DNA from: a virus
Lineage: Duplodnaviria > Heunggongvirae > Uroviricota > Caudoviricetes
Virus record (IMG/VR): IMGVR_UViG_2703718836_000006
Strand: one strand, 5' to 3'
Length of the DNA: 13,937 nucleotides
Shown: one piece after another, positions 1-13,937 of the stretch
Position numbering within the stretch: the first letter of the stretch is position 1
How the letters are laid out: each line of letters opens with the position of its first letter
Program-made: the position numbers and the translations under genes
Notes under the pieces: generated by a model
Databases searched by the model: none
The model's input: only the letters and a program-made list of their open reading frames with translations
What the model was told of the DNA's origin: nothing

Positions 1-1
1 A

Positions 2-1972
2 GTAAGTTGGCACCATTACCAAACCTTTGAAGAATATAGGCAGTTAGGTTATGCATGTCAAATTAAAAAATATCAGTCTTATGAAGAAGCACATAAGGAA
101 TTATTTAATGGCTTCTTTAGCGTCGATTCAACTAAAGAAAGGTTGATTAAAGATTATAATACTTTCACAGATTCAATTGTAAAAATTCACTCACCTACTG
201 CAACTTATTCCTACATAAATTCAAAATATTACTTAAATGGTGTTATTGGCGAAGCTAATGTTGTTACGGAAATATTAGAGAGAATACAACATAGGCGTCC
301 AATTCTGTTTTTGATTGAGGCTGCAGCCGGTTTTGGAAAGACTTGCACGGCGTATGAATTATTGAGGGAGATTATAGTTAACAATATAGGGAAAATACCA
401 TTATTTTCAGAACTATCAAGGAATAGGCAAGCAAAAATATTCAGGTATGTACTATTAGATGAAATTGATAGAAGTTTTCCTTTGTTAAGCTCAGCCTTAG
501 TAAGGAATGAAATAAGAGCAGGAAATGTACCAGTTATACTTGACGGGTTTGATGAACTATTGCATGAAAGTACAAACGGAATTGAAAATAATTATGAAAA
601 AACAGAGCCAATGCTGGAAACAATAAGTGAGCTTCTAACTGATAGTGCAAAAGTGGTTTTGACAACTCGAAGAACAGCTATATTTGACGGAGATGAATTC
701 CATCAGTGGATAGCATCACATCAAGAAGATTTTGATGTGATAAGAATAAGAATTCATGAACCACAAATTGAAGACTGGCTTCCAGGTCAACGTTTAGATG
801 AAATTTCATCGACAGGATTTCCTCTTAACAAATTATCAAACCCTGTACTGCTATCATTTCTAAGATGCATCGACGACACCGACTTTAATAAAGTTATAAG
901 CGACCCAACAACTATAGTGAGGAAGTATTTTGATTCAATGCTTGAGCGAGAAAGAAAAAGACAAGATTTATTAATGTCTATTGAAGATCAATATACTATA
1001 CTAAAAATAATAGCTGACGACATGGTCGAGGGTAACTACACATCTGAGTCTAGAGAGTATATATCGTTAGTCATAACTGAAAAGAATCAACAACTCTTGG
1101 AGGCTACAAGAAAGCTTTATACTGTAGATGAAAGACCAACTACTGACGAATTAGTTAATAAATTAGCATCGCATGCTCTATTAGATCGGTCAGGCTCAGA
1201 AAACCAAGGTATTGGATTTGTTAATGAATTTGTTCTTGGTAATTTTGTTTCTGAAAATATTATTAATGATAAGTCAAATGAATGGATTGGTGATAAACGT
1301 TTTATAGAACCAGCAGTGCAATCTTATATGCCGAGGATCGATGATGAAAAAGAATTACTTTGGCATAGCTTAGAGTTTGCTTTATATTTTATGTCAGGTA
1401 ATGATAAAATCCTTTATAGTCATTTGCTTATAGGAAAAGTTCCATTAGATTTAAAAAATGATAGTGTTGAGCAATTGTCTATATCAAAACTTTCTTTAGG
1501 CGATATAAATATAATACATGATACTATCTTTGTTGATTGTTCGTTTTTTAGCAGCATATTTACCTGTGGTAATTATAAAAACGTTACATTCGTGAACTGT
1601 TCTTTTATAGATTGTAGTTTTAACGAATTAAGTGGTAGGGAAGATATTTATTTTTTGGGATGTGAATGTGACAATGATGCTATTAATAAAAAATCTGTCG
1701 AGATAAACAGTGAAAATGATCACGATATTACAGATTGTGATATTTACATCTTAGAGAAGTTCTGTCCCAGAGGGAGTGTTAGCTATCATAAGCATCGGCC
1801 TATAAAAGGCTTATGTTCTAACAACAATCAATTTCAGTTAAGTGAAATACTCCATTCTTTAGATAAATTGAGGAAAGACGGTCTTTTACTTACGCCAGAC
1901 AAGCGTTCGTTCCTTGAACTTAACATGGCAAGAATATCAGAGATTAAAGCAATTCTTGGGAGGAATTTCTGA
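2..1972 (+). CDS. NACHT-type STAND P-loop NTPase, probably 5'-truncated by the window edge; C-terminal Cys-rich repeat region
   Basis: ORF track gives 143..1972 (609 aa), but the frame has no stop between nt 2 and 143 and TTG143 directly abuts a purine run with no spacer, so the true start is probably upstream of the window. Motifs read from the translation: Walker A 'EAAAGFGKT', Walker B 'VPVILDGFDEL' (hhhhDGhDE, the NACHT signature), sensor-1-like 'VVLTTRR'. C-terminal 5-residue periodic repeat FVDCS/FTCGN/FVNCS/FIDCS. Confidence 0.8.
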   Translation, partial: VSWHHYQTFEEYRQLGYACQIKKYQSYEEAHKELFNGFFSVDSTKERLIKDYNTFTDSIVKIHSPTATYSYINSKYYLNGVIGEANVVTEILERIQHRRPILFLIEAAAGFGKTCTAYELLREIIVNNIGKIPLFSELSRNRQAKIFRYVLLDEIDRSFPLLSSALVRNEIRAGNVPVILDGFDELLHESTNGIENNYEKTEPMLETISELLTDSAKVVLTTRRTAIFDGDEFHQWIASHQEDFDVIRIRIHEPQIEDWLPGQRLDEISSTGFPLNKLSNPVLLSFLRCIDDTDFNKVISDPTTIVRKYFDSMLERERKRQDLLMSIEDQYTILKIIADDMVEGNYTSESREYISLVITEKNQQLLEATRKLYTVDERPTTDELVNKLASHALLDRSGSENQGIGFVNEFVLGNFVSENIINDKSNEWIGDKRFIEPAVQSYMPRIDDEKELLWHSLEFALYFMSGNDKILYSHLLIGKVPLDLKNDSVEQLSISKLSLGDINIIHDTIFVDCSFFSSIFTCGNYKNVTFVNCSFIDCSFNELSGREDIYFLGCECDNDAINKKSVEINSENDHDITDCDIYILEKFCPRGSVSYHKHRPIKGLCSNNNQFQLSEILHSLDKLRKDGLLLTPDKRSFLELNMARISEIKAILGRNF

Positions 1973-2877
1973 TGTATAACGGGAATGAATTGCGAATTAT
2001 TCAAAGTTTGCAAAAAGATATAGAAGATGAACTTAATCGTATTGGATTACTTTATCGTTTTTTTTCGAGGACAAAATCAGAAAGCTCAATAATTAAGAAA
2101 TATGAAAAAGAGCCTAATAAATACTCAGAGGATGGTAAAAAAATTCAAGACTTATTTGGGGTTAGGATAATATTATATTTTCCTGATGATTTATTTATTG
2201 CTCAAAAAACACTGGAGAAATTATTCGAAATTGAATCTAAAACCGTAGACGAAACCACGGCTAATCTCTTTGCGGCAACTCGATGCAATTACGTCTTTAA
2301 GTTACCAGAAGTATTATCAAATGATAGTGTCTTATTAAAGAAATATTCTTATATTGATACTACTTTTGAAGTCCAATTTAGAACTATTTTATCTGAAGGA
2401 TGGCATGAAGTTGAGCATGATCTACGCTATAAGTGCAAAGAGGATTGGGTTGAGCATAATGACCTTAGTCGCGCGCTGAATGGAATTTACGCCTCTTTGG
2501 AAACATCTGATTGGGGAATAATGAAGTTATTTGAGGATTTAGCATATAGAAATTATAAGTCAAGCGCATGGTCCGCTATGCTAAGAAATAAATTAAGATT
2601 GAGAATGGACGATAAGCTTGATGAAAAGATAATTTCAATAATTAATGAGAAAGAGCTTGGTAAAAAGTTTTATAGAATTGACAGAGATCGTTTGTTATCG
2701 TTAATGTTAGATTATAATATTGATATACCAATTAATCTTAATAATATAATTTACCTTTGTAATTATTTTTTCATAAAATCTACGGAGCTTCAGGATATAG
2801 CCCCTGCTTTAATAATGAAAAAGCTTACAGATGCTGATGAAAAATTCAATAAAAATACTATTTTAGCATCTAAATAA
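1972..2877 (+). CDS. RelA/SpoT-like nucleotidyltransferase (small alarmone synthetase / toxSAS-like)
   Basis: 301-aa ORF; its ATG overlaps the upstream TGA by 1 nt (TGATG), implying translational coupling. Synthetase-domain motifs in order: 'SRTKSESSIIKK' (R-x-K-S...S-I...K), 'DLFGVRIILYFPDD' (D-x-x-G-x-R), 'EVQFRTILSEGWHEVEHDLRYK' (E-V-Q-[IF]-R-T...W...E-H...Y-K). No hydrolase (HD) domain seen. Confidence 0.75.
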   Translation: MYNGNELRIIQSLQKDIEDELNRIGLLYRFFSRTKSESSIIKKYEKEPNKYSEDGKKIQDLFGVRIILYFPDDLFIAQKTLEKLFEIESKTVDETTANLFAATRCNYVFKLPEVLSNDSVLLKKYSYIDTTFEVQFRTILSEGWHEVEHDLRYKCKEDWVEHNDLSRALNGIYASLETSDWGIMKLFEDLAYRNYKSSAWSAMLRNKLRLRMDDKLDEKIISIINEKELGKKFYRIDRDRLLSLMLDYNIDIPINLNNIIYLCNYFFIKSTELQDIAPALIMKKLTDADEKFNKNTILASK

Positions 2878-2893
2878 TAACTATCTCCGGCTA

Positions 2894-2925
2894 TTAAGTA
2901 GGCCTTGTATTTTAGGCCTACTTAA
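2894..2925 (+). terminator. Perfect 11-bp inverted repeat (TTAAGTAGGCC / GGCCTACTTAA, 10-nt loop) 17 nt after the RelA/SpoT-like stop; putative terminator or protein-binding site
   Basis: Read directly from sequence. No clean T-tract follows on either strand, so intrinsic-terminator status is uncertain. Confidence 0.35.
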
Positions 2926-3160
2926 AAAGTTTCATTATGTGAAGTGATGATGATAGCAAATCTGATATCTTTATGGTTGGATGCGAGAAAATATTTTTAT
3001 CCCGACACAACAACTGGTAATGATAGAAAATTTAAACCCAAAAATGCTACAGTAGCCTCAGCTCACAAACGGAGTATAAAGTGGCGGTTACTCTTTAGTG
3101 GGAATACTGTAGATAGTTGATAAACTGGGCTGGATTTTCTTTTCTAACCGAAGGGAAGAA

Positions 3161-3222
3161 AAGCAAGGGGAACCCAAAGAAACAAGCGCAGCGGCTTCGT
3201 AGGGTTAGCCCTTGCTTCTTTT
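3161..3222. terminator. Long imperfect hairpin (AAGCAAGGG ... CCCTTGCTT with inner AACCC/GGGTT pairing) followed by CTTTT; possible bidirectional terminator or structured RNA
   Basis: 9-bp outer stem 3161-3169 / 3209-3217 plus inner 5-bp stem 3171-3175 / 3202-3206; T-rich tract after the 3' arm on the plus strand. Confidence 0.3.
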
Positions 3223-3395
3223 ATAATTGGCATTATTCATTCAAGAACAATAGGATCTTCGCTTGTACAAGCGAAGCTATAATAAAAAATCAATTAATTA
3301 TTTTAAAAGTATTAAGCAAGAGCCTATTGACATTCGTAAAATAAAAGTTATTTTTAATGTATGCCATAAATAAAAAGTTTTATGTCATATGTATC

Positions 3396-3439
3396 CTGCA
3401 CTATGTGCAGTTAATGTGCCACTTGTCCCATATATGGGA
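3396..3439. promoter_or_regulatory. Two closely spaced palindromes (CTGCAC-TAT-GTGCAG at 3396-3410; TCCCATATATGGGA at 3426-3439) in the coding-poor spacer; candidate operator sites
   Basis: Perfect dyad symmetry read from sequence; AT-rich surroundings; no convincing ORF nearby. Confidence 0.25.
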
Positions 3440-3929: not shown

Positions 3930-4826
3930 CTATGACTGGCTGTTTTCAGTAAGAGTCTTATCATCCAAAGAATTTATTCTAGAAATTCTTTTTAACTCAT
4001 TAAGATAATCAACCTCGTTTTCTAAGAACCAATGAAGAACTTTAGAGTTGCCAAGTAATTTATTAATATATGACTGGATTATAACGAATTTCAACATATC
4101 TGAACCATACTCGGTTTGAAGTTTTTTCGTTTCTTCCGAAGTTGTTGCCATTTCTTGTTCCAGACGAAGTATGGTTTTTTTTATGTCCTTTTTATAGGGA
4201 GTGTTTTTCCCTTTATTTACTATCATCGATGACGGTGTTGCATCCAAGATGCTCATTGCAAATTTTTTACTATAATTATCAAAATTAATCATTGTACCGA
4301 CTGCTTCAATTTGACGAATTGGCTTCATTTTCCTCAAAACGTCAAATGTAGCCTTAGGTATAGGTTTATCAGAAAGTTTCGCAATTACACTTGGATCTAT
4401 GCCGTTCATCACATTAGCTTTATCTTTTATGGCATCAACAGATATGCCCAAAGCAGCACTAAGTTTTTCAATTGATACTTTTGCCAGAGACTTAATTATC
4501 ATTCTATGTTCTTCAACTACATTTATATGATTCACTTGTTTGTTAGGAGTGAAAGCATCATCTATGCTCGAAAGTATACATGGAGCTTTTTCTATATCTA
4601 AGTCTTTTAAAGCCTCAACCCTTAAATGGCCATCAAGTATCTTAGTGACATCTTTATCTTTGTCATAGAATACTATTATTGGTTCAATAATACCCAAGCT
4701 TTCGATAGAGGTAACTATTTGATGATATTTATGGCTTCGCTTTACGTTTTCTAATAATTCCTTAGATGGAATTAACTTATTAGTTTCCAGGTAAATAAAA
4801 TTTTTGCCAAAACGTATCTGAATCAT
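3930..4826 (-). CDS. ParB/Srx-like N-terminal domain protein with central HTH (paralog of the upstream gene)
   Basis: 298-aa ORF; ParB-N-like segment 'IVFYDKDKDVTKILDGHLRVEAL' (DGHxR at the box-II position), probable HTH 'VSIEKLSAALGISVDAIKDK'. Start overlaps the upstream stop by 4 nt (ATGA). Low GC. Confidence 0.7.
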   Translation of the reverse strand: MIQIRFGKNFIYLETNKLIPSKELLENVKRSHKYHQIVTSIESLGIIEPIIVFYDKDKDVTKILDGHLRVEALKDLDIEKAPCILSSIDDAFTPNKQVNHINVVEEHRMIIKSLAKVSIEKLSAALGISVDAIKDKANVMNGIDPSVIAKLSDKPIPKATFDVLRKMKPIRQIEAVGTMINFDNYSKKFAMSILDATPSSMIVNKGKNTPYKKDIKKTILRLEQEMATTSEETKKLQTEYGSDMLKFVIIQSYINKLLGNSKVLHWFLENEVDYLNELKRISRINSLDDKTLTENSQS

Positions 4827-5719
4827 TTTGATACCTCTTTGTTTACTGGGTTTAATATCTGAGATGGTAGTTCTGAAAGATTCTCTTGTTCAAGTATATT
4901 TTGAAAGCTTTTATTCATCATTATGATGTTAAAAATCTCATTTATTATTAGTAGATTGGTTTTTATAAATTTCGAGTTGTTATAAACAGATTTATGTTCA
5001 GCGATACTATTTTCATAAAGCTCAATCAACTCCTCTGCAGTCATCCTTTTTGATGGTTTGTGATAATAAAATCCGGCTGCTTTTGCACCTTTATTCCCAA
5101 CTGTTCTTTGATTTAGAATGTATTTTATCTTTATAATGTCCCGACTTTTTATTAATTTTTTATCATATGCTTCGGTAAGAATATCTTGTGCTTCCTCAGT
5201 TTCACATCTTGCAAATTGCACTGCGAGATACAGAGGCAAATTACCCCGTTCGACTGCTGAGAGAAGTTTATGCTCTCCCTTATCAAGAAGCATATTAATA
5301 CTGCTCACCCAGTTCGATGAATATCCAGTAATCTCACTTATTTCGGAGTCTGAAAGTCCTCTGATTTTCATGTCTTTAATCACCTGTAATAACTCATTAG
5401 AACGTGGTCTTCTCCTTGCAATGTTTTCAACTAAACTCATAACGTAAGCATCTTCTTCTGATACATCTCTTATAATTGCTGGAATAATAGTTTCACCTAA
5501 TGCAACAAGAGCCTCTATTCTCCCTTGACCACAAATTAAAGCATATTTGAAATCGTCTTCATCAATAGCTCTTACGCTTATAGGCTTGCTTAATCCTCTT
5601 TTTTTTATGCTTTCCTTTATTTCTTCATGCACTACCTTATTTCTTGTTCGTGGGTTAAGAAATTTTATTTTTGCAATCTCAATTTGAATTATTGGGAATT
5701 CATTTTTTTCAGGCAGCAT
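4823..5719 (-). CDS. ParB/Srx-like N-terminal domain protein with HTH
   Basis: 298-aa ORF; 'ISVRAIDEDDFKYALICGQGRIEAL' aligns with the ParB box-II region (GERRxRA), 'LVENIARR' with the ParB ENLQR-type motif, HTH 'LSDSEISEITGYSSNWVSS'. Overlaps the recombinase 3' end by 11 nt. Confidence 0.7.
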   Translation of the reverse strand: MLPEKNEFPIIQIEIAKIKFLNPRTRNKVVHEEIKESIKKRGLSKPISVRAIDEDDFKYALICGQGRIEALVALGETIIPAIIRDVSEEDAYVMSLVENIARRRPRSNELLQVIKDMKIRGLSDSEISEITGYSSNWVSSINMLLDKGEHKLLSAVERGNLPLYLAVQFARCETEEAQDILTEAYDKKLIKSRDIIKIKYILNQRTVGNKGAKAAGFYYHKPSKRMTAEELIELYENSIAEHKSVYNNSKFIKTNLLIINEIFNIIMMNKSFQNILEQENLSELPSQILNPVNKEVSK

Positions 5720-7271
5720 ATAGTTCCCTCACTTTCATGCGAGTAATAATTTGTAGAAATTTATCAAGATTATCAAATCTATAGAGATCTAACCGAATGT
5801 TGTTTGTTTCCATCATACACATTTTACTATATTCGTTTTCAATCTTTGGTATGATATAAAAATCAAGAGGTGAAATATTTTGTGAATTCATTCGTATAAC
5901 AATTGTTATGTCTGCTTTCTGTGAGTTATCAAACCGGACTTTCCATCTAAGTTTACCTGATTTCATATGTATGCATTTAGTAACAAGGACGGAAATTAAA
6001 AACTCATCATTGATGTAAAGCATTGGGTAATATTTATACTCGTCTATATGACAGTTACTTTTTAATATTTCGCCCTTAAAATCCTCAATTATCTCTGAGT
6101 AAAATGATCTTAGTGCTTCATTTATTTGGAGATGGCTGTAATCATGTTCTGGCTTATAACCAATCAAAGTATATGCTCTTAAAAGACCACCAAATCGGGT
6201 TCTATAAACAGAAGATGAAGGGCCTGTATCATCTTCATCAATGATAAAGCCTGATAGTTTTCCATTAGATTCTAATTTTTCTTTTAGCTTTTCTAATAGA
6301 TCTTCATTAGTCAAATGAATGGATCGGAGCTGAATTATTTCTTGAGCTTTATTATATTTTTTCTTTGAAATAATTGGTTTATATGCCTTGTCACATCTAA
6401 TCCATTCATGTTTGGGGTTTTTTACAAGCTTACTTTTTAGTTTAGATGAGGTTTTGTTATATATGTTGTTTCCAATATATTTTTCATTTGTCAAAATTTG
6501 ATGTATTTTTGCACGAGTCCATGATGTTCCATTTTCTGCAGGTATGCTCTGTTCATTTAATCTCTCAGCAATAATGAATTCTGGGACGTTACTATCTATA
6601 AAGAGATCATAGATTCTATTTACAATTTTTATTTCATTTTTTGGTCCCGGAATTAATATTACCCTATCTGTTTGAATACTCTTTCTTTTGCGGAAATTCA
6701 ATATTTCTTTAGCTATGCCATTTTCGTCTACTAAAAGACGTCTCAGCCCATAACCAGCCATACCGCCTTGATGATAACCAAGCTTTATTAAATTTACTTG
6801 CCCTATAAATACCTTTTCAGATAGATTCCTGCTGTGATATGCAGCACTTGATCTTTTTATATTCAGTATAACAGAGGACTCTAAAGGGAAATCTTTAGTG
6901 GGTATAGGTTCGGAACAATATATAAGATCTACACCATTTCTTTCAAATAGAAAGGAATAATATGCAGCTTCATCACTATTTTGAAAACGACCAAAACGGC
7001 TCACATCATAAAATAATACAGCCTGTATATCTATTTTCTTTTGTTCTACATCGCTAAGTAACTGCTGCAAAGAATGCCTGCCTACGATACTGACTCCGCT
7101 CTTACCTGCATCATCGTAGGTATAAGCGATTTCCATATTGTTCTTTTCAGCATAATCTTTGATATATTCAGACTGATTATGTAAAGAATATTGCTGATGG
7201 TCGGTAGACATCCTCAAGTACTGTGCGACCCTAACTCTATGATTTTTTTCATTTCCGCTAGCCATGCACAA
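5709..7271 (-). CDS. Large serine recombinase (resolvase/invertase catalytic domain + recombinase domain; no obvious Cys4 zinc ribbon)
   Basis: 520-aa ORF; N-terminal 'VAQYLRMSTDHQ' (catalytic Ser in the R-x-S-T context), 'DDAGKSG', 'DVSRFGR'; recombinase-domain 'LGYHQGGMAGYGLRR' and 'WTRAKIHQILTNEKYIGN'. C-terminal ~200 aa unassigned. Confidence 0.85.
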   Translation of the reverse strand: MCMASGNEKNHRVRVAQYLRMSTDHQQYSLHNQSEYIKDYAEKNNMEIAYTYDDAGKSGVSIVGRHSLQQLLSDVEQKKIDIQAVLFYDVSRFGRFQNSDEAAYYSFLFERNGVDLIYCSEPIPTKDFPLESSVILNIKRSSAAYHSRNLSEKVFIGQVNLIKLGYHQGGMAGYGLRRLLVDENGIAKEILNFRKRKSIQTDRVILIPGPKNEIKIVNRIYDLFIDSNVPEFIIAERLNEQSIPAENGTSWTRAKIHQILTNEKYIGNNIYNKTSSKLKSKLVKNPKHEWIRCDKAYKPIISKKKYNKAQEIIQLRSIHLTNEDLLEKLKEKLESNGKLSGFIIDEDDTGPSSSVYRTRFGGLLRAYTLIGYKPEHDYSHLQINEALRSFYSEIIEDFKGEILKSNCHIDEYKYYPMLYINDEFLISVLVTKCIHMKSGKLRWKVRFDNSQKADITIVIRMNSQNISPLDFYIIPKIENEYSKMCMMETNNIRLDLYRFDNLDKFLQIITRMKVRELYAA

Positions 7272-7547
7272 AACCTCATGGATGATTCAATACAATGTAG
7301 AGGATAAAATTGATCAAATTTTAACCGAATTCAACTGTTTTATCATTGATTAGAGCGAATTTGGTAGTTCTTCGAGGTGTATGATAATCGAGAAGAGATG
7401 TGAATTATTTAGCTGATATGACCGACAGCTTTCGTTATGTGGCCTCAAGGTACCCATTTGTAAATGGCTATGCTTAGTCCACATAGGTTAATGGTGTGAT
7501 CATTAATTCTTCAAATAAATCAAGATAGTTAACCCATCATGGAAGAG

Positions 7548-8777
7548 TTATGCGGCAATAACTTTGTATTTTTGAGACGAAACATAGTCACTCCACCATT
7601 GCATGAGAACCACACGTTCTGTGAGATACTCTGCACGATTGTAGGCTGCAATTATTTCATCTTTTTTCGAGTGGGCAAGGGCGGCTTCTAAGACATCAGT
7701 TCTAAACTTGCCACACTCCTCAGCCGCCGTTCTAGCGATTGATCGCATACCATGAGCTACAAGCTCACCTCCGAAGCCCATACGGATTATAGCCGCATTA
7801 GCTGTTTGTTCATGCATGTGATTGAGTGGAGCTTTGATACTGGGAAAAACCCACTCTCTATGCCCGCTGATGGCTTTCATTGAATCCAAGACGCGCAAAG
7901 ATTCTTTGCTCAGTGGAACTTTGTGAGGCTTCTTCATTTTCATAAACTCCGCCGGGATGTTCCACATGCTGGTTTCTATATCAATATCTGACCATCTTGT
8001 GCGAACAGCTTCACCAGGGCGAACCCATGTGAGAAGTTGCCACTCAATCAGTAGCCTTGTTTCTAAACGGATAGAAGCATTGTTTAGAGCAACCAGGAAG
8101 CGGGGGAGTTCGGAAGGGGGTAATGCTGGCATATTCTGTTTTTTTGGCTTGCTGAACCGTTGCCCCAGGTTGTCAGCCGGATTGAATTCTATGAGTTCTT
8201 CTGTTGCTGCATAGCGGAAAATTTCATTCAGGCGGGATATGACGCGGCGAAGTGTTTCAAGGACACCTCGTTTTTCTATGGGGTCTAAATGCTGTTTAAG
8301 CATTTTAGGGCGAATCTCCTTAATGGGGGTATCACCCAACGTTGGAAAGATATTTCTCTCTAGGCTTCGCCAGATGTCGTTAGCATGATCCTGGGAGATG
8401 CCTGACGTTTTGACTTTCTCATCAAGCCACTTCTTGGCTACTGCTTGAAATGTATGTTCCGTTGCATCCTTAAGGGCATTGGCTTTGTGGGTGTTATGAA
8501 CTTGTGGGTCTATACCATTTGCAAGCAACGACAAGTACTCATCACGTAAAGCTCGTGCCTTCGCAAGTGTAAGGTGAGGATAGGTTCCTAAGCTCACCTT
8601 AGTTCGCTTTTTGGTCACAGGCACTGCATATCTGAAATACCAATTTTTCTTTCCTCCCTTCGCTAAGGGGGCGATTCGCAGGAGCAAACCATCGCCGTCA
8701 AAAAGGTTAACCTCTTTCTCGGCAGGTTTGGTGCTTTTGATTTCAGTGTCAGTGAGCTTCTTAGCGATTTTTGCCAT
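7548..8777 (-). CDS. int: P4-type tyrosine integrase (N-terminal arm-binding domain + catalytic domain)
   Basis: ORF track extends to 8921, but the conserved N-terminus 'MAKIAKKLTDTEIKSTKPAEKEVNLFDGDGLLLRIAP...WYFRY...LGTYP...LAKAR...GIDP' begins at the ATG at 8777 (alternative in-frame ATG at 8793). A start at 8921 would run the ORF across the terminator at 8876-8909, so it is rejected. Catalytic region has 'AHGMRSIARTAA' and 'AALAHS...YNRAEY'. Confidence 0.85.
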   Translation of the reverse strand: MAKIAKKLTDTEIKSTKPAEKEVNLFDGDGLLLRIAPLAKGGKKNWYFRYAVPVTKKRTKVSLGTYPHLTLAKARALRDEYLSLLANGIDPQVHNTHKANALKDATEHTFQAVAKKWLDEKVKTSGISQDHANDIWRSLERNIFPTLGDTPIKEIRPKMLKQHLDPIEKRGVLETLRRVISRLNEIFRYAATEELIEFNPADNLGQRFSKPKKQNMPALPPSELPRFLVALNNASIRLETRLLIEWQLLTWVRPGEAVRTRWSDIDIETSMWNIPAEFMKMKKPHKVPLSKESLRVLDSMKAISGHREWVFPSIKAPLNHMHEQTANAAIIRMGFGGELVAHGMRSIARTAAEECGKFRTDVLEAALAHSKKDEIIAAYNRAEYLTERVVLMQWWSDYVSSQKYKVIAA

Positions 8778-8818
8778 GTTTGGGACCCTCATGTTTTGGA
8801 CCCTTTGTGTTGGGTCCC
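8775..8818. promoter_or_regulatory. Tandem copies of a GGGWCCC-containing motif (CATGTTTGGGACCC / CATGTTTTGGACCC / TGTTGGGTCCC) overlapping the integrase start
   Basis: Read from sequence; GGGACCC and GGGTCCC are self-complementary. Both candidate int start codons lie inside repeat units. Confidence 0.4.
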
Positions 8819-8875
8819 AAAAAGGGTGCCATAACGAGTAGATTCTAGCAATTCTCGGTAGACTACTATAGACGT

Positions 8876-8909
8876 AAAAAAGCCCGCAAGGCTGGTTCCA
8901 TGCGGGCTT
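8876..8909 (-). terminator. Rho-independent terminator on the minus strand (stem AGCCCGCA/TGCGGGCT, 12-nt loop, then T5)
   Basis: Perfect 8-bp GC-rich stem 8881-8888 / 8901-8908; the minus strand reads stem-loop followed by TTTTT (plus-strand AAAAA at 8876-8880). Lies between the tmRNA 3' fragment and the int start. Confidence 0.6.
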
Positions 8910-8943
8910 GATAGACTTCACTGAACTTCAATATATCAAAAAT

Positions 8944-8973
8944 TGGTGGAGCTGGCGGGAGTTGAACCCGCGT
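8944..8973 (-). other. ssrA: 3'-terminal ~30 nt of a tmRNA (ssrA) gene (T-arm + acceptor 3' strand + CCA): attachment-site core copy, not an intact gene
   Basis: Minus strand reads ACGCGGGTTCAACTCCCGCCAGCTCCACCA: T-stem GCGGG/CCCGC with a 7-nt TTCAACT loop, acceptor strand CAGCTCC, discriminator A, CCA. This matches my recollection of the enterobacterial tmRNA 3' end. The sequence 5' of it (8974-9100, minus sense) is AT-rich and has no tRNA-like or tmRNA-like structure. Confidence 0.65.
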
Positions 8974-9114
8974 ATGATTGAATTTATGTGTATGAAAAAT
9001 AAAGTTTAATTTCTTCCTGCAATCTTTGCGTATCAAAAACGTGCACTTCGTCATTATTTTATAGTAATTTATTTTGCTCATTTTTGACTAGACAGATTTG
9101 GCTGAGGTGTCGCC

Positions 9115-10038
9115 ATGGAACTGTTGATTTCCCCAAAAAGATTGTGCCTTTATAATGATTCTGATCGCCGTGTTACAGCTAAGTTTTTGAACTCAGTTGA
9201 TAACACCCTTGCGAGAGCATCTGGACAAGTGGTTATAGACTTTTCGACAGTAGAATATGCAGGTGCTGCAGCTAGCGTAAGGTTGTTTGCTATCATCAGT
9301 AGGGCTTATTTTATGGCATTCGGCACAAGTAGTCTTCGATTCATTTGGCCGAAAAAAGAAAATAATCCGTATGGGCATCGATATATTGTTGGGACGGGGT
9401 TATCGATTGCTCTAATGGCAAATACAGTTGATAAATTAGATGTTCTTACTAAGGAACGCAGGTACTTTCAGTCTGCTGTGGAACCGTATGAACATTGGGC
9501 TAAAACGATGGAATTTATTGATTCAAAAGCAATTCTCACATTTGAGCAATATCTTTTGGTCTCCTCAGCCCTTAGTGAGGCAATGCTGAATGTTTCATAT
9601 CATGCATATGAACATCCAGACTTTGCTGGTGCTATAGAGCATATGCAAGGGAAACGATGGTGGCAGAGTTGTTGGTACAACCCTGACACAGACAAGGTTG
9701 TCTTTATTATTTATGATCTTGGGCTTGGCATACATAAATCATTTACTTCAGCCTCTCCGTTGTTTACTGGGTATGACGACGTGACATCTGTGTCAACAGC
9801 CCTGACAGGAGGACAGTCCAGATATGTTAACGCTGGACGTGGTAATGGTTCTGAGGATATAAAGAGACCTATAGGGTCTGGCTGTGCGAATTCAGAATCA
9901 CTTTTGGTGTTCACAGGGAATGTTAAGTACAGCTATAATTCAAGAAATGAGGTTCCCAAATGCGAGTGGATACCTGAGTACATGCCGGGAACATTGATTG
10001 AATGGTCATTAGTTCCGAGGAGAGGAGAAGATGGTTAA
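9115..10038 (+). CDS. GHKL-family ATPase/kinase-like protein (RsbW/SpoIIAB-type HATPase domain in the C-terminal half; N-terminal half unassigned)
   Basis: 307-aa ORF with RBS GAGGT 6 nt upstream of the ATG. N-box 'LSEAMLNVSYHAYEH' (E...N...HA), G1 'IIYDLGLGI' (DxGxG), Gly-rich 'GRGNGSED', C-terminal 'MPGTLIEWSL'. Confidence 0.65.
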   Translation: MELLISPKRLCLYNDSDRRVTAKFLNSVDNTLARASGQVVIDFSTVEYAGAAASVRLFAIISRAYFMAFGTSSLRFIWPKKENNPYGHRYIVGTGLSIALMANTVDKLDVLTKERRYFQSAVEPYEHWAKTMEFIDSKAILTFEQYLLVSSALSEAMLNVSYHAYEHPDFAGAIEHMQGKRWWQSCWYNPDTDKVVFIIYDLGLGIHKSFTSASPLFTGYDDVTSVSTALTGGQSRYVNAGRGNGSEDIKRPIGSGCANSESLLVFTGNVKYSYNSRNEVPKCEWIPEYMPGTLIEWSLVPRRGEDG

Positions 10039-10372
10039 CATCGTCATAGCAAGGGATTTCTCAAAGATGCCATTTGGAAGGTTCAAGTCTGACAGCCCGA
10101 ACAGTGCTGAGCGTTTTCGTAAGGACTTTCTGGTTCCTGCATTAAAATCTGGTGAGCGTGAGGTTGTCGTAGATTTTACGGGTATAAATCATGGGATTGG
10201 TTCTTCGTTTCTAGAGGAGGCCTTTGGAGGGCTTGTTAGGAAGGAAGGTGTACCTAAGGCTGACATTAAGGCAAAACTAATTATAAAAAGTGATTTGCCG
10301 TTCTATAAAGATCAAATTTTTAGATATATTGAAATGGCTAATCCAGAAAGGAAGCCTTTCCAAAGGAGTTGA
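10031..10372 (+). CDS. Small STAS-like (anti-sigma-antagonist-fold, DUF4325-like) protein, translationally coupled to the GHKL gene
   Basis: 113-aa ORF; start overlaps the upstream stop by 8 nt; AGGAG immediately upstream. 'EVVVDFTGINHGIGSSFLEEAFGGL' resembles STAS-like domains that partner RsbW-type kinases. Confidence 0.55.
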   Translation: MVNIVIARDFSKMPFGRFKSDSPNSAERFRKDFLVPALKSGEREVVVDFTGINHGIGSSFLEEAFGGLVRKEGVPKADIKAKLIIKSDLPFYKDQIFRYIEMANPERKPFQRS

Positions 10373-10373
10373 T

Positions 10374-11003
10374 TTGAACACCGTTGATATTAAGGACACC
10401 CTTGCAGGGGTGTCCACTTACGCATGGATGTTTAGTGTTGTGAGTATTATCTTAGTGTTTATTGGATGGTTTGTTACTTACAATAATTCACTGAAGATTG
10501 CTACTCGCTCTGAATCTAAATCGATTATAGATGCGATTGCTAAAATTTTAAACGAAATATCAGATTTGTCTCTGGATTACTGGGTTAATAAGTCAACACC
10601 ACCAGATTCTAATCCATTTAAGAAAAAAAATTTTAAGAACTCTAATGGATTGCATACTCAGTCGGCGAAAATATATTTAACGGCAATTCATGGAAAAGCC
10701 ATACAAATAAATAAATACATTAATCTTCTCGATGAGAGGGGGATAAAAATAACAATTTCGTATTTTTCTAATATTATAGATGAAGCTACTATGGAATGTG
10801 AGAAATCATATTGTTTTAATAAGTCATATAGGGTTTTTCGCGCTCAGAATGTATCTAGTGCTTGTGTCGATTTCATAATGCATTTATATGATTCTTTTCA
10901 AAAAAATCATCCGCCACGTAAGCCTGTATATGTATTGAAAACATTAAAACAATTGGATTGTTACTTGGATAAATGGCATAATGAATTATGTGGGCGGCAA
11001 TAA
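10374..11003 (+). CDS. Hypothetical membrane-anchored protein (single N-terminal TM helix 'MFSVVSIILVFIGWFVTY'); start uncertain
   Basis: ORF track gives 10290 (a GTG, overlapping the upstream gene by 83 nt). I favour TTG at 10374, preceded by AAGGAG at 10363-10368; ATG at 10428 is another option. Low GC. No recognisable catalytic motif. Confidence 0.45.
   Translation: MNTVDIKDTLAGVSTYAWMFSVVSIILVFIGWFVTYNNSLKIATRSESKSIIDAIAKILNEISDLSLDYWVNKSTPPDSNPFKKKNFKNSNGLHTQSAKIYLTAIHGKAIQINKYINLLDERGIKITISYFSNIIDEATMECEKSYCFNKSYRVFRAQNVSSACVDFIMHLYDSFQKNHPPRKPVYVLKTLKQLDCYLDKWHNELCGRQ
10394..10415. other. Perfect 8-bp inverted repeat GGACACCC-ttgcag-GGGTGTCC
   Basis: Read from sequence; GC-rich dyad in AT-rich context just after the STAS-like gene stop. 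Confidence 0.3.
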
Positions 11004-11011
11004 ATGCCGCC
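10993..11011. terminator. GC-rich hairpin GGCGGCA-ataaa-TGCCGCC between convergent genes; putative bidirectional terminator or att-proximal structure
   Basis: Perfect 7-bp stem spanning the stop of the plus-strand gene (11001-11003), 5 nt from the stop of the minus-strand integrase (11016-11018). No strong T-tract. Confidence 0.35.
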
Positions 11012-11015
11012 ATAA

Positions 11016-12182
11016 TCATTGTATAATGTATTTGATGGAGCTTTTTCCGTCGTATTCTTTGAGATATCGACCATAGTGCCTGAAAAGCATCTCAGGCCCT
11101 TTATGCCCCATTTGAGCTGCAAGCCAAAACAGGTTCGCTCCCCGGCTGATATGGCGGGTGGCGAATGTATGCCTGGTTTGATATGGGTTTCTGTAACGAA
11201 TACCTGCTTTTCGTAATGTTGGCACCCATGCTTTTTTCCTTATTGCATCAGCACTTGCCCAAGGCTTATTGGTCTTTGGGTCTTCAAAGACAGTAGCATC
11301 CTTCATGAATGTAAATGGCTTCTGATTTATCAGCGCCAACATTGCCTCTTCTGTCAGTTCAACTTTACGAGTACCTGCTTTTGTCTTTGTCCCTTTGATA
11401 ACACCGACAACACTTGCGCTCTGGACATGGGCAGTTTTTCCAACAAAGTCGATATCACGCCATCTAAGGGCACATAATTCAGAACTACGCAGGCCTGTAT
11501 GTATAGCGAACCGGAACAGATTCTCCCATTGTTTGTTTCCGGCTGCTGCTAGTAATGCATCAACTTCTGTTGGTGATAGCGGATCAACCACGTAGCAACT
11601 TTCTGCTTCTGACTTATCACTTTGGTAGCGCGAAGCAGTTACCAACGATACGGGGTTAATTTGAAGTACCCCATCGGTTACGGCTTCATCAAGTGCTGAC
11701 CGCAGGAAAGATAACTGGTTGCGAATTGTTTTTAAGGTCGTTTTCTGGCTTTGAATCCACGCTTTCAGGATTGCTGGTGTTAATTCACTTGCAGGGCAAA
11801 TGTGGAGTGAGGCTAACGCACTACGGCATTTTTTATAACCACCAATCGTTGAGGGTGAGAGTTTTCTCGTTTCGCAGATTTCAAGATATTCGTCCAGGTA
11901 CATTTTTACCGTTTTGCCTGCAGCAGCATTACCAAAAATTTTCAAACGAGCAGAACGGGGAAAATATTCCGCATAAATGAATGTTCCCCTTTCGATCTTA
12001 TTATGAATTTCGCCGAGTGTGCGCTCGGCGTATTTAATGTTCTTTGGTGTTACTTCCAGATTAGAAAGAGGCTCACGACATTTAACTCCTTTGTAGGTGA
12101 AAGTTATATTGATCGTTTCGCCCTGGCGGTGTTTCCTGATTGTTACGCCGCGCGGTAGTTTGAGCAGTTTTGTCTGGCCCAT
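11016..12182 (-). CDS. int: Phage-type tyrosine integrase (lambda-family catalytic domain with N-terminal arm-binding domain)
   Basis: 388-aa ORF; catalytic residues in context: 'AIHTGLRSSELCAL' (Arg), 'RHTFATRHISRGANL' (H-x-x-R), 'LFRHYGRY' (Tyr nucleophile). GC content visibly higher than the cargo. Confidence 0.9.
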   Translation of the reverse strand: MGQTKLLKLPRGVTIRKHRQGETINITFTYKGVKCREPLSNLEVTPKNIKYAERTLGEIHNKIERGTFIYAEYFPRSARLKIFGNAAAGKTVKMYLDEYLEICETRKLSPSTIGGYKKCRSALASLHICPASELTPAILKAWIQSQKTTLKTIRNQLSFLRSALDEAVTDGVLQINPVSLVTASRYQSDKSEAESCYVVDPLSPTEVDALLAAAGNKQWENLFRFAIHTGLRSSELCALRWRDIDFVGKTAHVQSASVVGVIKGTKTKAGTRKVELTEEAMLALINQKPFTFMKDATVFEDPKTNKPWASADAIRKKAWVPTLRKAGIRYRNPYQTRHTFATRHISRGANLFWLAAQMGHKGPEMLFRHYGRYLKEYDGKSSIKYIIQ

Positions 12183-12361
12183 TTTGCAACCTCACTAAGA
12201 TCAATCCACCTCTCCTTAACGCCTTCAACCTTTAAAACCTGAACACCTTCACGCCAAACACCGCGCTGTACACGTTTGTTTATTGCTTCAGGAGTTTCGC
12301 CAGTTTCTTTGCAATAAGTTGAGATAGGAACACAATCGAGGTTCAGCATATGTTTCTCCAC
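12143..12361 (-). CDS. xis: Excisionase (Xis)-like small DNA-binding protein
   Basis: 72-aa ORF immediately upstream of, and overlapping by 40 nt, the integrase, the usual xis-int arrangement. 'TPEAINKRVQRGVWREG...EGVKERWIDLSEV' resembles lambda-type Xis winged-helix sequences. Confidence 0.6.
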   Translation of the reverse strand: MEKHMLNLDCVPISTYCKETGETPEAINKRVQRGVWREGVQVLKVEGVKERWIDLSEVAKWARQNCSNYRAA

Positions 12362-12408
12362 TTAGCCCGCTGCACACGGGCAGTAATATCAAATTCCAGT
12401 CCTGATAA

Positions 12409-12624
12409 TTAATTTTGTTCTCTGGTTGCTACGTGTTTTATTGGCCTGATGCTGTCCAGGAGCAGACGGCGGCGCATGTTTGGCGCGCCCCAACGGTAAC
12501 CAGTCTTTTTGTCGTAGGATTCACAACGTCCGGCAACCCAGGACGTTTCAGTAGAATGTAATTTCATCCGCTTTTCACCGTCTCGGGTGATAACAATTCC
12601 TGTATGAGTTTTTATCACGCTCAT
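12409..12624 (-). CDS. Hypothetical prophage early-region protein
   Basis: 71-aa ORF, co-directional, overlapping the upstream gene by 4 nt; no recognisable motif. Confidence 0.45.
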   Translation of the reverse strand: MSVIKTHTGIVITRDGEKRMKLHSTETSWVAGRCESYDKKTGYRWGAPNMRRRLLLDSIRPIKHVATREQN

Positions 12625-12983
12625 TTCTTAGTCTCCGGTGCTTTCGGCATTACTGCCCAGTGAGTGATATTGACGTTTTCAAGGTCCCCGACCTGAAATG
12701 TCCACTGCCATTCTCCGGTTTCTTTTTGCCCCCATGTGTACCAGAGAGAACGCCAGCCAATCAGCCAGCCTTCTCCATTAGCATCAAATAACAGAACACT
12801 TTCATTTGCTGGCGGCAGTTCAGCTGACACTGGTATTACTTTGTTTTCCAGTGCTGCACATTTAGCTTCAAGCGCATCGAATTTACGTACCAGGTACTCA
12901 GCATTTGTTTCGTTCACTTTCAGATCTCGCGGTACACATCTCCCACGAAGAAACCCTTCCATTTCGAAAACATTCATGCGCAT
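12621..12983 (-). CDS. DUF551-like phage protein
   Basis: 120-aa ORF; C-terminal 'GEWQWTFQVGDLENVNITHWAVMPKAP' matches the conserved Trp ... (V/I)THW-x-x-MP tail I associate with DUF551 prophage proteins. Confidence 0.5.
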   Translation of the reverse strand: MRMNVFEMEGFLRGRCVPRDLKVNETNAEYLVRKFDALEAKCAALENKVIPVSAELPPANESVLLFDANGEGWLIGWRSLWYTWGQKETGEWQWTFQVGDLENVNITHWAVMPKAPETKK

Positions 12984-13537
12984 TTGCGTAACTCCGATAA
13001 CTCGTTAAAACGTTCCATAAACATCCCGTAGGCATGACCTGGCGACAGTGGAATAACTTTGAACATCTCTGTTGCCGGGATACCTTCCAATACAGGCCAG
13101 AAAGAGCCATCATCAAGTCCGAGATCGCGGCGTTCGGTTGCCAGCATAATGAGATCGGCATATTTCACTGGCGTGCTCATAACAGGAGGTAACCCGTATT
13201 TCTCACGGATTACGGCGTCTATTTTTTCTTCCATCCGTTTATAGTCAGGAAGAAGTCGTTTCAGTGGTGCGGGGATGTCCTGGCAATACGCTTCTGTTGC
13301 ATCATGCATTAACGCTTCAAAAGCAAATTCCTGCGGCACCAGTTGGCTGCAAAGCACTGCATGCTGGGCGACACTGTAGAAGTGTGATAGATGTCCTGCA
13401 AAGCGACAGATATTTGAAAGGGAAACCGCGATATCGTTAATCACGATGTCGTCTTTATTTATCTTGTCATAATAAAAATGCTTCCCGGAAAAAGTTTTAA
13501 TAAATGACATTTTGTTCTCCACGTATATGCGCTGCAC
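12974..13537 (-). CDS. HD-domain phosphohydrolase (YfbR/YfdR-like putative 5'-deoxynucleotidase)
   Basis: 187-aa ORF; HD motifs 'FYSVAQHAVL' (His) and 'EALMHDATEAY' (His-Asp), plus a later Asp in 'RRDLGLDDG'. Confidence 0.65.
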   Translation of the reverse strand: MQRIYVENKMSFIKTFSGKHFYYDKINKDDIVINDIAVSLSNICRFAGHLSHFYSVAQHAVLCSQLVPQEFAFEALMHDATEAYCQDIPAPLKRLLPDYKRMEEKIDAVIREKYGLPPVMSTPVKYADLIMLATERRDLGLDDGSFWPVLEGIPATEMFKVIPLSPGHAYGMFMERFNELSELRKCA

Positions 13538-13565
13538 CGCGCTGAATTCGGGTAAAAGGAAGCCC

Positions 13566-13883
13566 TCACCATCCGGCGATTATTGAGTAAATTATGTTTC
13601 CATAAATGCCCCCGCAGGGGCATTTGCAGGCATCGATAAAGCAGCGGGTGCCCTCATCTGCAAGATCTTTAGAATAACGGGTAAAGTCATCGATGCTGGC
13701 AGTGGAAAGCGCACCACGGAAACGGAAGCGATTTAAATTAAATTTTTCCAGATCATGAATGCGGAAATTCTCAGGCAATGCCACAGCATCGGCACCAATC
13801 TTACTGATAATTTCATTAACACCCTGAGCAGAAATAAGGGCATGGATTTGATTAATTGCGGTTGCGTCTAAGTTCTGAGACAT
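13566..13883 (-). CDS. Hypothetical prophage protein
   Basis: 105-aa ORF co-directional with the prophage early genes; no recognisable motif. Confidence 0.45.
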
Positions 13884-13937
13884 AATAAGTCCTCACTATA
13901 TAAAGATATTCAGTGATGAGATAAATAATCAGTTAAT

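Follow-up and report, generated by a model that had tools for sequence, protein, structure and literature searches.

The window analysed here, a 13,937-nucleotide stretch of DNA taken at its full length from an IMG/VR virus record assigned to Caudoviricetes (IMGVR_UViG_2703718836_000006), opens with two overlapping genes on the same strand, one for a STAND NTPase of the NACHT type (open reading frame 1, ORF1) and the other for a nucleotidyltransferase of the RelA/SpoT homologue (RSH) kind (ORF2). We consider it probable that the two form a self-contained conflict module, most likely anti-phage, in which the NACHT protein activates the RSH effector. For this pair, domain content, intact motifs, obligate co-inheritance, mobile carriage and mutual dispensability are established. 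An NTPase–effector module had been proposed from the letters of this DNA alone (the original prediction); its core, an obligate, coupled pair on mobile DNA with correlated divergence of the two genes, an NLR-like fold and an intact synthetase, has held up, and its expectation of hidden upstream parts has not.

ORF1 is open in the window from base 2 to the TGA at 1970-1972 (a 656-residue fragment in the window translation), and its intact counterpart in E. coli MRE162 has 701 aa (WP_000944877.1; L001:14848-16953), NCTC9041 being another E. coli strain with an intact operon. It matched the Pfam family NA-iREase2 (NACHT-associated inactive restriction endonuclease 2, PF22723; E 1e-19, 71 bits against a cut-off of 27). 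An unseen N-terminal domain had been expected upstream; only 51 codons are missing, and NA-iREase2 lies mostly inside the window. A single acidic position is kept in this domain among 121 homologues (D/E40) and the (D/E)xK position is occupied by K/T/Q-x-R/K/Q, and the restriction endonuclease (REase) triad is hence incomplete, in agreement with the "inactive" label. The NACHT signature recognised in the original prediction (Walker A, Walker B and a TTR sensor-1) is present, with E151, A152, A154, G155, G157 and K158 of Walker A, D226, G227, F228, D229, E230 and L231 of Walker B, and T266 and R268 of sensor-1 invariant in the same 121 homologues, T159 of Walker A conserved in 99%, and H436 and N453 likewise invariant. 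H436 is the winged-helix histidine; activating changes of the NLRC4-H443 type were made by Kibby et al. in bNACHT25 and bNACHT16 (10.1101/2022.07.19.500537). An AlphaFold2 model of a full-length Citrobacter homologue (90% identical), based on an alignment of 30 homologues, had a pLDDT (model confidence) of 83, and its top Foldseek matches in the PDB were NLRP2, NOD2, NLRC4, NLRP14, Avs4, NLRP3 and NAIP5 (E 2e-9 to 7e-7), with the alignments to NLRs covering the helical/winged-helix region; TM-scores were low (0.2-0.28), as expected for multi-domain chains. As modelled, the fold of ORF1 is NACHT/NLR-like, with a nucleotide-binding domain (NBD) followed by helical and winged-helix parts.

The C-terminal region of ORF1 is its presumed sensor. 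A search of the ORF1 profile against the PDB matched AlbG (listed as McbG-like), MfpA, Qnr and HalA at positions 534-603, consistent with a pentapeptide stretch at 549-587 of the profile and β-strand rungs at 533-597 of the AlphaFold2 model. This stretch is short (about 2-3 coils), and the Pfam matches in the region (Pentapeptide_4, LD_SV2) were weak, the pentapeptide ones being sub-threshold. Column entropy had its minimum in the NBD (mean 1.63 bits) and reached its maximum, 2.6-2.9 bits, from residue 500 onwards, the usual pattern of a conserved switch joined to a diversifying sensor. A PADLOC-DB v2.0.0 scan of ORF1 gave no match at E ≤ 1. NCBIfam matches to HalA/Qnr reflect pentapeptide repeats only and assign no system, and a match to AbiGI (E 0.0045) was too weak to be used.

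ORF2 matched Pfam RelA_SpoT (E 3e-15, 56.8 bits against a cut-off of 27); the synthetase motifs are intact and an HD domain is absent, in line with the earlier description of a synthetase lacking a hydrolase domain. Twelve residues (R33, K35, K43, D60, R65, E133, Q135, R137, H145, E146, H149 and K154) are invariant in 124 ORF2 sequences, and since such invariance holds across these and the 121 ORF1 homologues, the motifs of the two proteins are not due to chance. A profile of 20 ORF2 homologues retrieved RelQ-, RelP- and SAS1-type synthetases from the PDB (E 2e-9 to 7e-6), and the AlphaFold2 model (pLDDT 80) had B. subtilis SAS2, RelP and SAS1 as best Foldseek matches (E 3e-6). Neither an unrelated fold of ORF2 nor a lack of NACHT homology in ORF1, either of which would have spoken against the original prediction, was seen: ORF2 has the synthetase fold and ORF1 is NLR-like. 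Judged by its motifs, ORF2 is a RelA/SpoT-type pyrophosphokinase with a predicted intact active site and the sole predicted enzyme of the pair.

The C-terminal part of ORF2 is family-specific. Residues 141-180 are the most conserved stretch of the protein (0.7-1.3 bits) and AlphaFold2 confidence drops to pLDDT <50 for residues 164-179, a segment that could serve as an interface or mobile lid; the helical domain that follows (181-301) was modelled at pLDDT ~90. The most conserved segment, residues 161-180 (window 2452-2511), reads DLSRALNGIYASLETSDW and is also the one of lowest AlphaFold2 confidence. When residues 161-301 were searched against 1.84 billion representative proteins, 245 matches (50%-identity clusters) were obtained, nearly all of 290-300 aa with the domain in the same place; the domain is confined to the ORF2 family and a sister clade described below. 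The ORF2 search gave 2808 clusters (90% identity) at E ≤ 1e-3, possibly including more distant RelA/SpoT relatives.

We examined the pairing of the two genes from both sides. Scanning the ORF2 alignment against one genome per species yielded 80 loci, in Gamma- and Betaproteobacteria, Myxococcota, Campylobacterota, Bacteroidota, Firmicutes (Turicibacter), Acholeplasma and a cyanobacterium; the family covers at least eight major lineages. An ORF1 homologue of ~700 aa lies directly upstream on the same strand in 76 of these loci (phmmer E 5e-70 to 0), the remaining four being one at a contig edge and three (L019, L027 and L038) with ORF2 alone. From the ORF1 side, a scan of the ORF1 alignment against metagenomes gave 63 loci, and ORF2 is present in every one of them that extends 273 nt or more downstream, with two such pairs decayed. 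The pairing, whose absence across genomes had been named beforehand as grounds for abandoning the proposal, is obligate in both directions. Over both sets of loci the gap between the genes in complete pairs ranges from -68 to +17 nt, most commonly -4 or -1 (the exceptions being 177 nt in L020 and the decayed pairs), and in the window the ORF2 ATG begins on the last base of the ORF1 TGA (TGATG), which is the 1-nt overlap noted originally. V. parahaemolyticus and P. aeruginosa also have the pair, in unrelated neighbourhoods. Pairwise identities of ORF1 and ORF2 over 120 pairs correlate with r = 0.91, and both alignments are nearly gap-free; by this measure the two proteins have co-diverged, and the cassette has moved across phyla as a unit. 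When the two closest neighbours to the left and to the right of the pair were clustered over the 80 loci, no family turned up in more than four of them, so that no third component is conserved; the further partner genes thought possible upstream of the window do not exist, an IS1 element lying there instead.

Relatives of ORF2 bear on its function. P0361 (427 aa; L168-L170, gene at 2439-3722 in L168) corresponds to ORF2 with an additional C-terminal HD domain, and its gene is directly downstream of one for a 722-aa NA-iREase2/NACHT protein. The best PDB match of this HD domain is the (p)ppApp hydrolase Aph1 (7SMG, E 1.6e-18), with SpoT/Rel hydrolase domains next (~1e-9). Such a fusion speaks for a product whose 3'-pyrophosphate can be removed, without saying which; assignment of the product from the Aph1-like domain, as (pp)pApp rather than (p)ppGpp or tRNA, was tried and dropped, as the specificity residues are not conserved. 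In the sister clade, proteins of 590-680 aa (P0352, P0406, P0415, P0420, P0428 and P0429) combine the ORF2 module with a HEC-07-like region that matches positions ~26-356 of the 553-position HEC-07 model (E down to 2e-16), that is, its AdoMetDC-like and thioredoxin-like part and not the RelE toxin end. No NACHT gene was found upstream of P0352 in the one sister-clade locus examined (L167). P0418 has matches to AAA_28 and, weakly, to a CYTH domain beside the ORF2-type module. The sister-clade proteins and P0418 resemble single-gene systems that use this effector. Of nine HEC systems, seven protected E. coli against phages, HEC-07 being one of these (10.1101/2024.01.29.577857). With the sensor in cis in the HEC-07-type clade and a NACHT sensor in trans here, the ORF2 module behaves as an exchangeable effector. 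Alarmone synthetases are, moreover, among the effector domains that Kibby et al. list as fused to NACHT proteins, an example being Tox-RelA+NACHT+Pentapeptide+BetaPropeller in Reticulomyxa (10.1101/2022.07.19.500537).

The copy in the window is itself damaged. The source DNA is E. coli: 58 complete genomes match at least 80% of window bases 1-3400, the best with 100% identity, and all their alignments begin at base 20, the first base of ORF1 codon 52; likewise, 55 of 55 complete E. coli genomes matching bases 1-300 align from base 20 only. Bases 1-19 are identical at 17 of 19 positions (two mismatches) to the terminal bases of IS1A of MG1655 (L091:845-863, with the insertion sequence ending at 864), a match equalled by none of 200 shuffles. 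Because bases 1-19 are an IS1 end and lie outside the gene, ORF1 is 5'-truncated here: in the window genome an IS1-family element took away codons 1-51 and the native 5' region, and since the insertion cuts ORF1, this copy of the pair is probably inactive. The start of the window at an IS1 repeat may also be a contig end made by the repeat, in which case the missing 5' part of ORF1 would be on another contig. A TTG at base 143 was considered as an internal start that would give a 609-aa product in the window genome, and nothing supports its use. A separate IS1 insertion, at the Walker A motif, cuts the ORF1 homologue on plasmid pCFS1934 of Yersinia hibernica.

Damaged copies elsewhere act as natural knock-outs. 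The locus occurs in 66 of 5426 complete E. coli genomes (1.2%), all at least 99% identical, and 31 of the 60 E. coli rows listed have the plain annotation of a NACHT protein followed by a RelA/SpoT domain-containing protein, the rest having split or missing genes. Six of the latter were examined. In three, ORF1 is the damaged gene: it is frameshifted in H68, where ORF2 is full-length under a different accession (WP_134235427.1), has lost ~238 N-terminal codons, and with them Walker A and B, in H85, and ~363 N-terminal codons in an IS3-linked event in H88, ORF2 being wild-type in both H85 and H88. In the other three ORF1 is intact, with ORF2 split and showing a single mismatch to the query (H49), split with a 1-nt length difference (H56) or truncated at its start (H74). 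IS2 and IS3 insertions occur in the copies H30 and H80. Wild-type or full-length ORF2 is thus retained in E. coli beside ORF1 copies disrupted by IS2, IS3, a frameshift or a 5' deletion, and wild-type ORF2 also beside the IS1-cut ORF1 of the window and of the Yersinia plasmid. In L019, L027 and L038, solo ORF2 keeps all catalytic residues and tblastn found no ORF1 remnant alongside. Neither gene is therefore needed for toleration of the other, which argues against an obligate toxin–antitoxin pair and is in keeping with an effector that stays silent before its activation; the natural knock-outs thus favour activation of ORF2 by the NACHT protein over a classical toxin–antitoxin pair. That lesions abound despite at least 99% DNA identity suggests that the pair spread recently and then decayed fast, or that it has a fitness cost. 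Overall, roughly half of the 66 E. coli genomes with the locus have a lesion in one gene (IS2, IS3, frameshifts, split ORFs or 5' deletions). The solo-ORF2 genomes are a Pseudomonas and two myxobacterial/deltaproteobacterial metagenome-assembled genomes with ordinary gene neighbours, such as the amino-acid permease and solute-binding protein genes upstream of ORF2 in L019.

How the module would work can be sketched as follows; phage defence, abortive infection, toxicity, the direction of control and the product are what we infer from the above. A trigger would bind the C-terminal pentapeptide/tail region of ORF1, which would then exchange NTP and oligomerise; the clustered N-terminal domains would recruit ORF2 and switch it on; ORF2 would move pyrophosphate from ATP to a 3'-OH, making (pp)pApp, (p)ppGpp or a pyrophosphorylated tRNA 3' end, and growth and phage replication would halt. 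A more specific version, tentative and in our view somewhat doubtful, has an NLR-like receptor signalling via a stringent-response-type enzyme: the NACHT oligomer would use its dead-nuclease domain to dock and switch on a pyrophosphokinase whose acceptor pocket, lacking the G-loop tyrosine, is non-canonical, leading to an unusual 3'-pyrophosphorylated product or a new target. If true, bacterial NLRs would have a trans-acting effector route beyond those described so far, and the module would be a natural model for signalling by NACHT proteins without an enzymatic N-terminus.

Several observations pull the other way. Among the profile models that the original prediction had put forward as a check (NACHT, RelA_SpoT, pentapeptide), only RelA_SpoT exceeded its cut-off; the pentapeptide models stayed sub-threshold and Pfam NACHT PF05729 scored 17.7 bits on window ORF1, below its gathering cut-off of 26.7, several homologues, including those of L168-L170, having a precomputed PF05729 match. 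The tyrosine of the G-loop GY(R/Q)SxH of (p)ppGpp synthetases stacks on the acceptor base. This canonical tyrosine (GYRSxH) is absent in ORF2, with T/K/V/I at the aligned position and F100-x-x-x-R104-x-N106 instead, which makes the acceptor, and even enzyme activity, uncertain. The residues that confer specificity on Aph1 (D24, R96, D116 and R119; PMC10083569) are R, K, S and P in P0361. PADLOC-DB v2.0.0 has no model that matches both proteins, and on ORF2 it gave only PDC-S33 (E 8.4e-5, over 77 residues). Enrichment in defence islands was not demonstrated among 150 flanking proteins searched with Pfam and PADLOC, many of which are housekeeping and a few percent of which match defence models. 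Finally, all E. coli ORF1 lesions leave the C-terminal half and, because all retain it, leave some room for an inhibitory role of that half.

The last point bears on the view that ORF2 is a constitutively toxic toxSAS and ORF1 a large sensing antitoxin, the toxin being freed by phage or by loss of the island. Bicistronic overlapping genes are the hallmark that exposed toxSAS toxin–antitoxin modules (PMC7229694), ORF1 is upstream as are most antitoxins, and its C-terminal half, kept in all the E. coli lesions, could still bind ORF2. We nevertheless regard this as unlikely, given three genomes with a catalytically intact solo ORF2 and no remnant of ORF1, and wild-type ORF2 kept where ORF1 lacks Walker A and B; moreover, a 700-aa NTPase of NLR architecture is unlike the toxSAS antitoxins described in the literature examined, and NLR-type proteins studied so far activate their effector upon stimulation (10.1101/2022.07.19.500537). 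Another reading is a non-immune role, in which the NACHT protein would sense an internal or environmental cue and tune an alarmone synthetase for dormancy, stress tolerance or element maintenance. The closest RelA/SpoT-fold enzymes by sequence and fold are indeed housekeeping RelQ, RelP and SAS1 types, many loci lie among housekeeping genes, and bacterial NLR-related proteins with non-immune roles exist, AfsR being one. Yet the pair is patchy within species (1.2% of E. coli), has been transferred across phyla as a unit, is carried on islands and prophages and is frequently inactivated, and its sister clade is tied to the defence protein HEC-07; together these features form the pattern of a conflict system and not of core regulation, and we judge a regulatory role a shade less likely again than the antitoxin one.

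Very improbable, in our estimation, is the reverse order of events, with ORF2 sensing and making a signal and ORF1 reading this product and executing, for instance via a DNA-mimicking pentapeptide helix. Pairs of signal synthase and receptor are common in defence, as in CBASS, the pentapeptide region resembles gyrase-binding AlbG (McbG-like), MfpA and Qnr as well as nucleotide-binding HalA, and the inactive REase domain could bind a ligand. However, ORF1 has no recognisable effector activity, with its REase triad incomplete, the pentapeptide stretch is only ~2-3 coils long and in the least conserved part of the protein, and ORF2 is without an obvious sensor domain; in relatives, the ORF2 module replaces a toxin domain (RelE in HEC-07) or is joined to a hydrolase that would remove what it makes.

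Sensors and effectors of these kinds are already known, and the NACHT architecture has been catalogued. Members of bNACHT clade 15 resemble ORF1 in having a central NACHT NTPase, a C-terminal sensor-type region and an N-terminal module, and NA-iREase2+NACHT+Pentapeptide proteins are placed in this clade, from V. cholerae, Paenibacillus, Ignavibacteriales and others, in Table S1 of Kibby et al. (10.1101/2022.07.19.500537). One of them, V. cholerae WP_142737953.1, has the same domain layout as ORF1 (pentapeptide at ~550-590) and may be identical with one of the clustered homologues. No NA-iREase2 protein has a bNACHT number in that table, and we take them not to be among the tested members (10.1101/2022.07.19.500537). 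The clade-15 proteins that were tested, bNACHT09, 34 and 69, have other N-termini (TIR_2 in bNACHT09), whereas the N-terminal domain of ORF1 is catalytically dead; the effector here is, in contrast to clade 15, a separate and obligately linked gene, and a search of the text and tables of Kibby et al. for a linked RSH gene found no mention (10.1101/2022.07.19.500537). Antiviral STAND proteins of the Avs type, such as Avs2-trypsin-MBL (10.64898/2026.08.25.746987), likewise have an oligomerising STAND sensor that activates an effector, some with partner genes, and Avs4 is among the top fold matches of ORF1; ORF1 differs in belonging to the NACHT branch of STAND, in a pentapeptide sensor instead of a TPR-type one and in an RSH effector in trans.

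On the effector side, CapRel (SJ46) and the toxSAS enzymes (FaRel, FaRel2, PhRel, PhRel2, CapRel; Tas1/Apk) share with ORF2 a stand-alone RelA/SpoT fold, intact motifs and an extra C-terminal regulatory domain, and CapRel, toxSAS and Tas1 arrest growth as the effectors of phage defence or toxin systems. No greater closeness of ORF2 to toxSAS than to housekeeping RelQ, RelP and SAS1 could be detected: its PDB profile search returned no CapRel or Tas1 chains at E ≤ 0.01, and Foldseek ranks CapRel 29 and Tas1 50. It also differs from toxSAS in its partner, a 700-aa NACHT NTPase and not a small or fused antitoxin, in lacking the G-loop tyrosine and in being tolerated alone. HEC-07, a single-gene system (AdoMetDC-like + thioredoxin-like + RelE), shares its non-RelE part with the ORF2 sister clade; window ORF2 has no such region, and its sensor would be the NACHT protein in trans. 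FaRel–ATfaRel and Apk2–Aph1 (PMC7229694, PMC10083569) pair a synthetase toxin with a small alarmone hydrolase, as P0361 does, but in P0361 the hydrolase is fused, is not a separate immunity gene and lacks the (p)ppApp-specificity residues of Aph1, and E. coli ORF2 has no hydrolase domain. The original prediction did not recognise the pairing as a named defence system, and besides the lack of a PADLOC-DB v2.0.0 model, literature searches by accession and topic found no paper on a NACHT and RelA/SpoT pairing, nor did we find one on NA-iREase2. So far as we found, what is new is a separate, obligately linked RSH effector that has a C-terminal domain of its own and whose acceptor loop is non-canonical. 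If confirmed, the pair would add a widespread, compact and unnamed defence system and join two fields so far apart, NLR-type pattern recognition and RelA/SpoT alarmone chemistry. As the effector is separate and the sensor has no enzyme domain, it offers a clean test of how NACHT oligomerisation is relayed to a partner; the natural variants (Aph1-like fusion, HEC-07-type fusions, missing G-loop tyrosine) bear on what the effector makes, in genome annotation the pair could be treated as a single unit, and the many broken E. coli copies warn that presence of a gene does not equal function.

Table 1. Features of the window, with positions counted from its first base.
Feature	Position	Strand	Remarks
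IS1-family terminal inverted repeat	1..19	.	Element continues to the left beyond the window; interrupts the NACHT gene ahead of codon 52
ORF1, codons 52-701 and stop of a 701-aa STAND/NACHT NTPase	20..1972	+	Presumed sensor/switch; 5'-truncated here
ORF1, NA-iREase2 remainder (residues 52-125)	20..241	+	Inactive REase fold, presumed adaptor/docking; PF22723 match
ORF1, NACHT nucleotide-binding domain (residues 126-300)	242..766	+	Motifs invariant in homologues
ORF1, Walker A EAAAGFGKT	317-343	+	Translation; AAAGFGKT part at 320-343
ORF1, Walker B DGFDEL (within VILDGFDEL)	542-559	+	Translation; DGFDEL = 542-559
ORF1, sensor-1 TTR	662-670	+	Translation
ORF1, helical and winged-helix STAND part (residues 301-525)	767..1441	+	Includes invariant H436 and N453; AlphaFold2 secondary structure, conservation, Foldseek
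ORF1, C-terminal presumed sensor region (residues 526-701)	1442..1969	+	Pentapeptide β-helix ~530-600, variable linker, small α/β end domain
ORF2, 301-aa RSH nucleotidyltransferase (WP_000282312.1)	1972..2877	+	Presumed effector; ATG overlaps ORF1 stop
ORF2, synthetase domain (residues 1-160)	1972..2451	+	Small-alarmone-synthetase fold; motifs, Foldseek, PDB profile
ORF2, motif R33-K43 (RxKxxxSxxxK)	2068-2100	+	Translation
ORF2, motif D60-R65 (QDxxGxR)	2149-2166	+	Translation
ORF2, motif E133-T138 (EVQFRT)	2368-2385	+	Translation
ORF2, motif H145-K154 (HEVEHDLRYK)	2404-2433	+	Translation
ORF2, family-specific C-terminal part	2452..2874	+	Conserved segment 161-180, then helical domain 181-301; presumed regulatory/docking
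Perfect 12-bp hairpin	2894..2925	+	17 nt 3' of ORF2 stop; folds as RNA at -20.8 kcal/mol (z = -4.1 relative to shuffled sequences)
Set of two tandem ParB/RepB-family genes (298 aa each, 4-nt overlap) and a large serine recombinase	3930-7271	-	ParB/RepB genes directly downstream of the recombinase (520 aa)
Island integrase	7548-8921		
Three ORFs between the two integrases (307, 113 and 237 aa)	9115-11003	+	
Second, prophage-type integrase	11016-12182		

The pair is low-GC cargo of an integrative island, as had been predicted: GC content is 0.28-0.34 over bases 1-3000 and 0.44-0.47 in the integrase/prophage parts of the window, and two ParB/RepB genes, a large serine recombinase and a tyrosine integrase follow downstream. 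The MRE162 island with the intact pair has an integrase, a serine recombinase, two ParB genes and a relaxase, and sits at ssrA. Scans of the window for tRNA, tmRNA and Rfam families gave no match, and hence the ssrA attachment site present in MRE162 is not in the window; as ssrA follows the island integrase in MRE162, the window genome is arranged differently. The hairpin behind ORF2 probably marks the end of the operon; it is not a canonical intrinsic terminator, having no U-tract on either side; a terminator scan did not call it, and promoter and terminator consensus scans around the operon did no better than on shuffled sequences. Elsewhere, the P. aeruginosa pair adjoins DUF3987, Abi_2 and an integrase. 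In IMG/VR the pair occurs in four E. coli contigs and in one contig (L160:144-8569) between Zot/secretin genes and an integrase; in the latter the homologous pair has 42% identity and is apparently cargo of an inovirus-like (filamentous) prophage. The 150 flanking proteins mentioned above include integrases, transposases, a few GajA/AriA-like (OLD-type) ATPases, AbiLi, a type I methyltransferase and MADS.

The ParB/RepB and serine recombinase set is unchanged in the E. coli island copies examined, an unusual combination for the maintenance of an integrated island. Of the three ORFs between the integrases, that of 307 aa has a weak HATPase_c_2 match and overlaps the 113-aa DUF4325 (STAS-like) protein, and the low-GC one of 237 aa has no Pfam match and a weak PADLOC "2TM effector" match; they look like integrase-adjacent cargo and could form another small conflict module. 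The right half of the window (7300-13937) is a different, prophage-like element with yfdR and yfdS, 97% identical in strain M37H.

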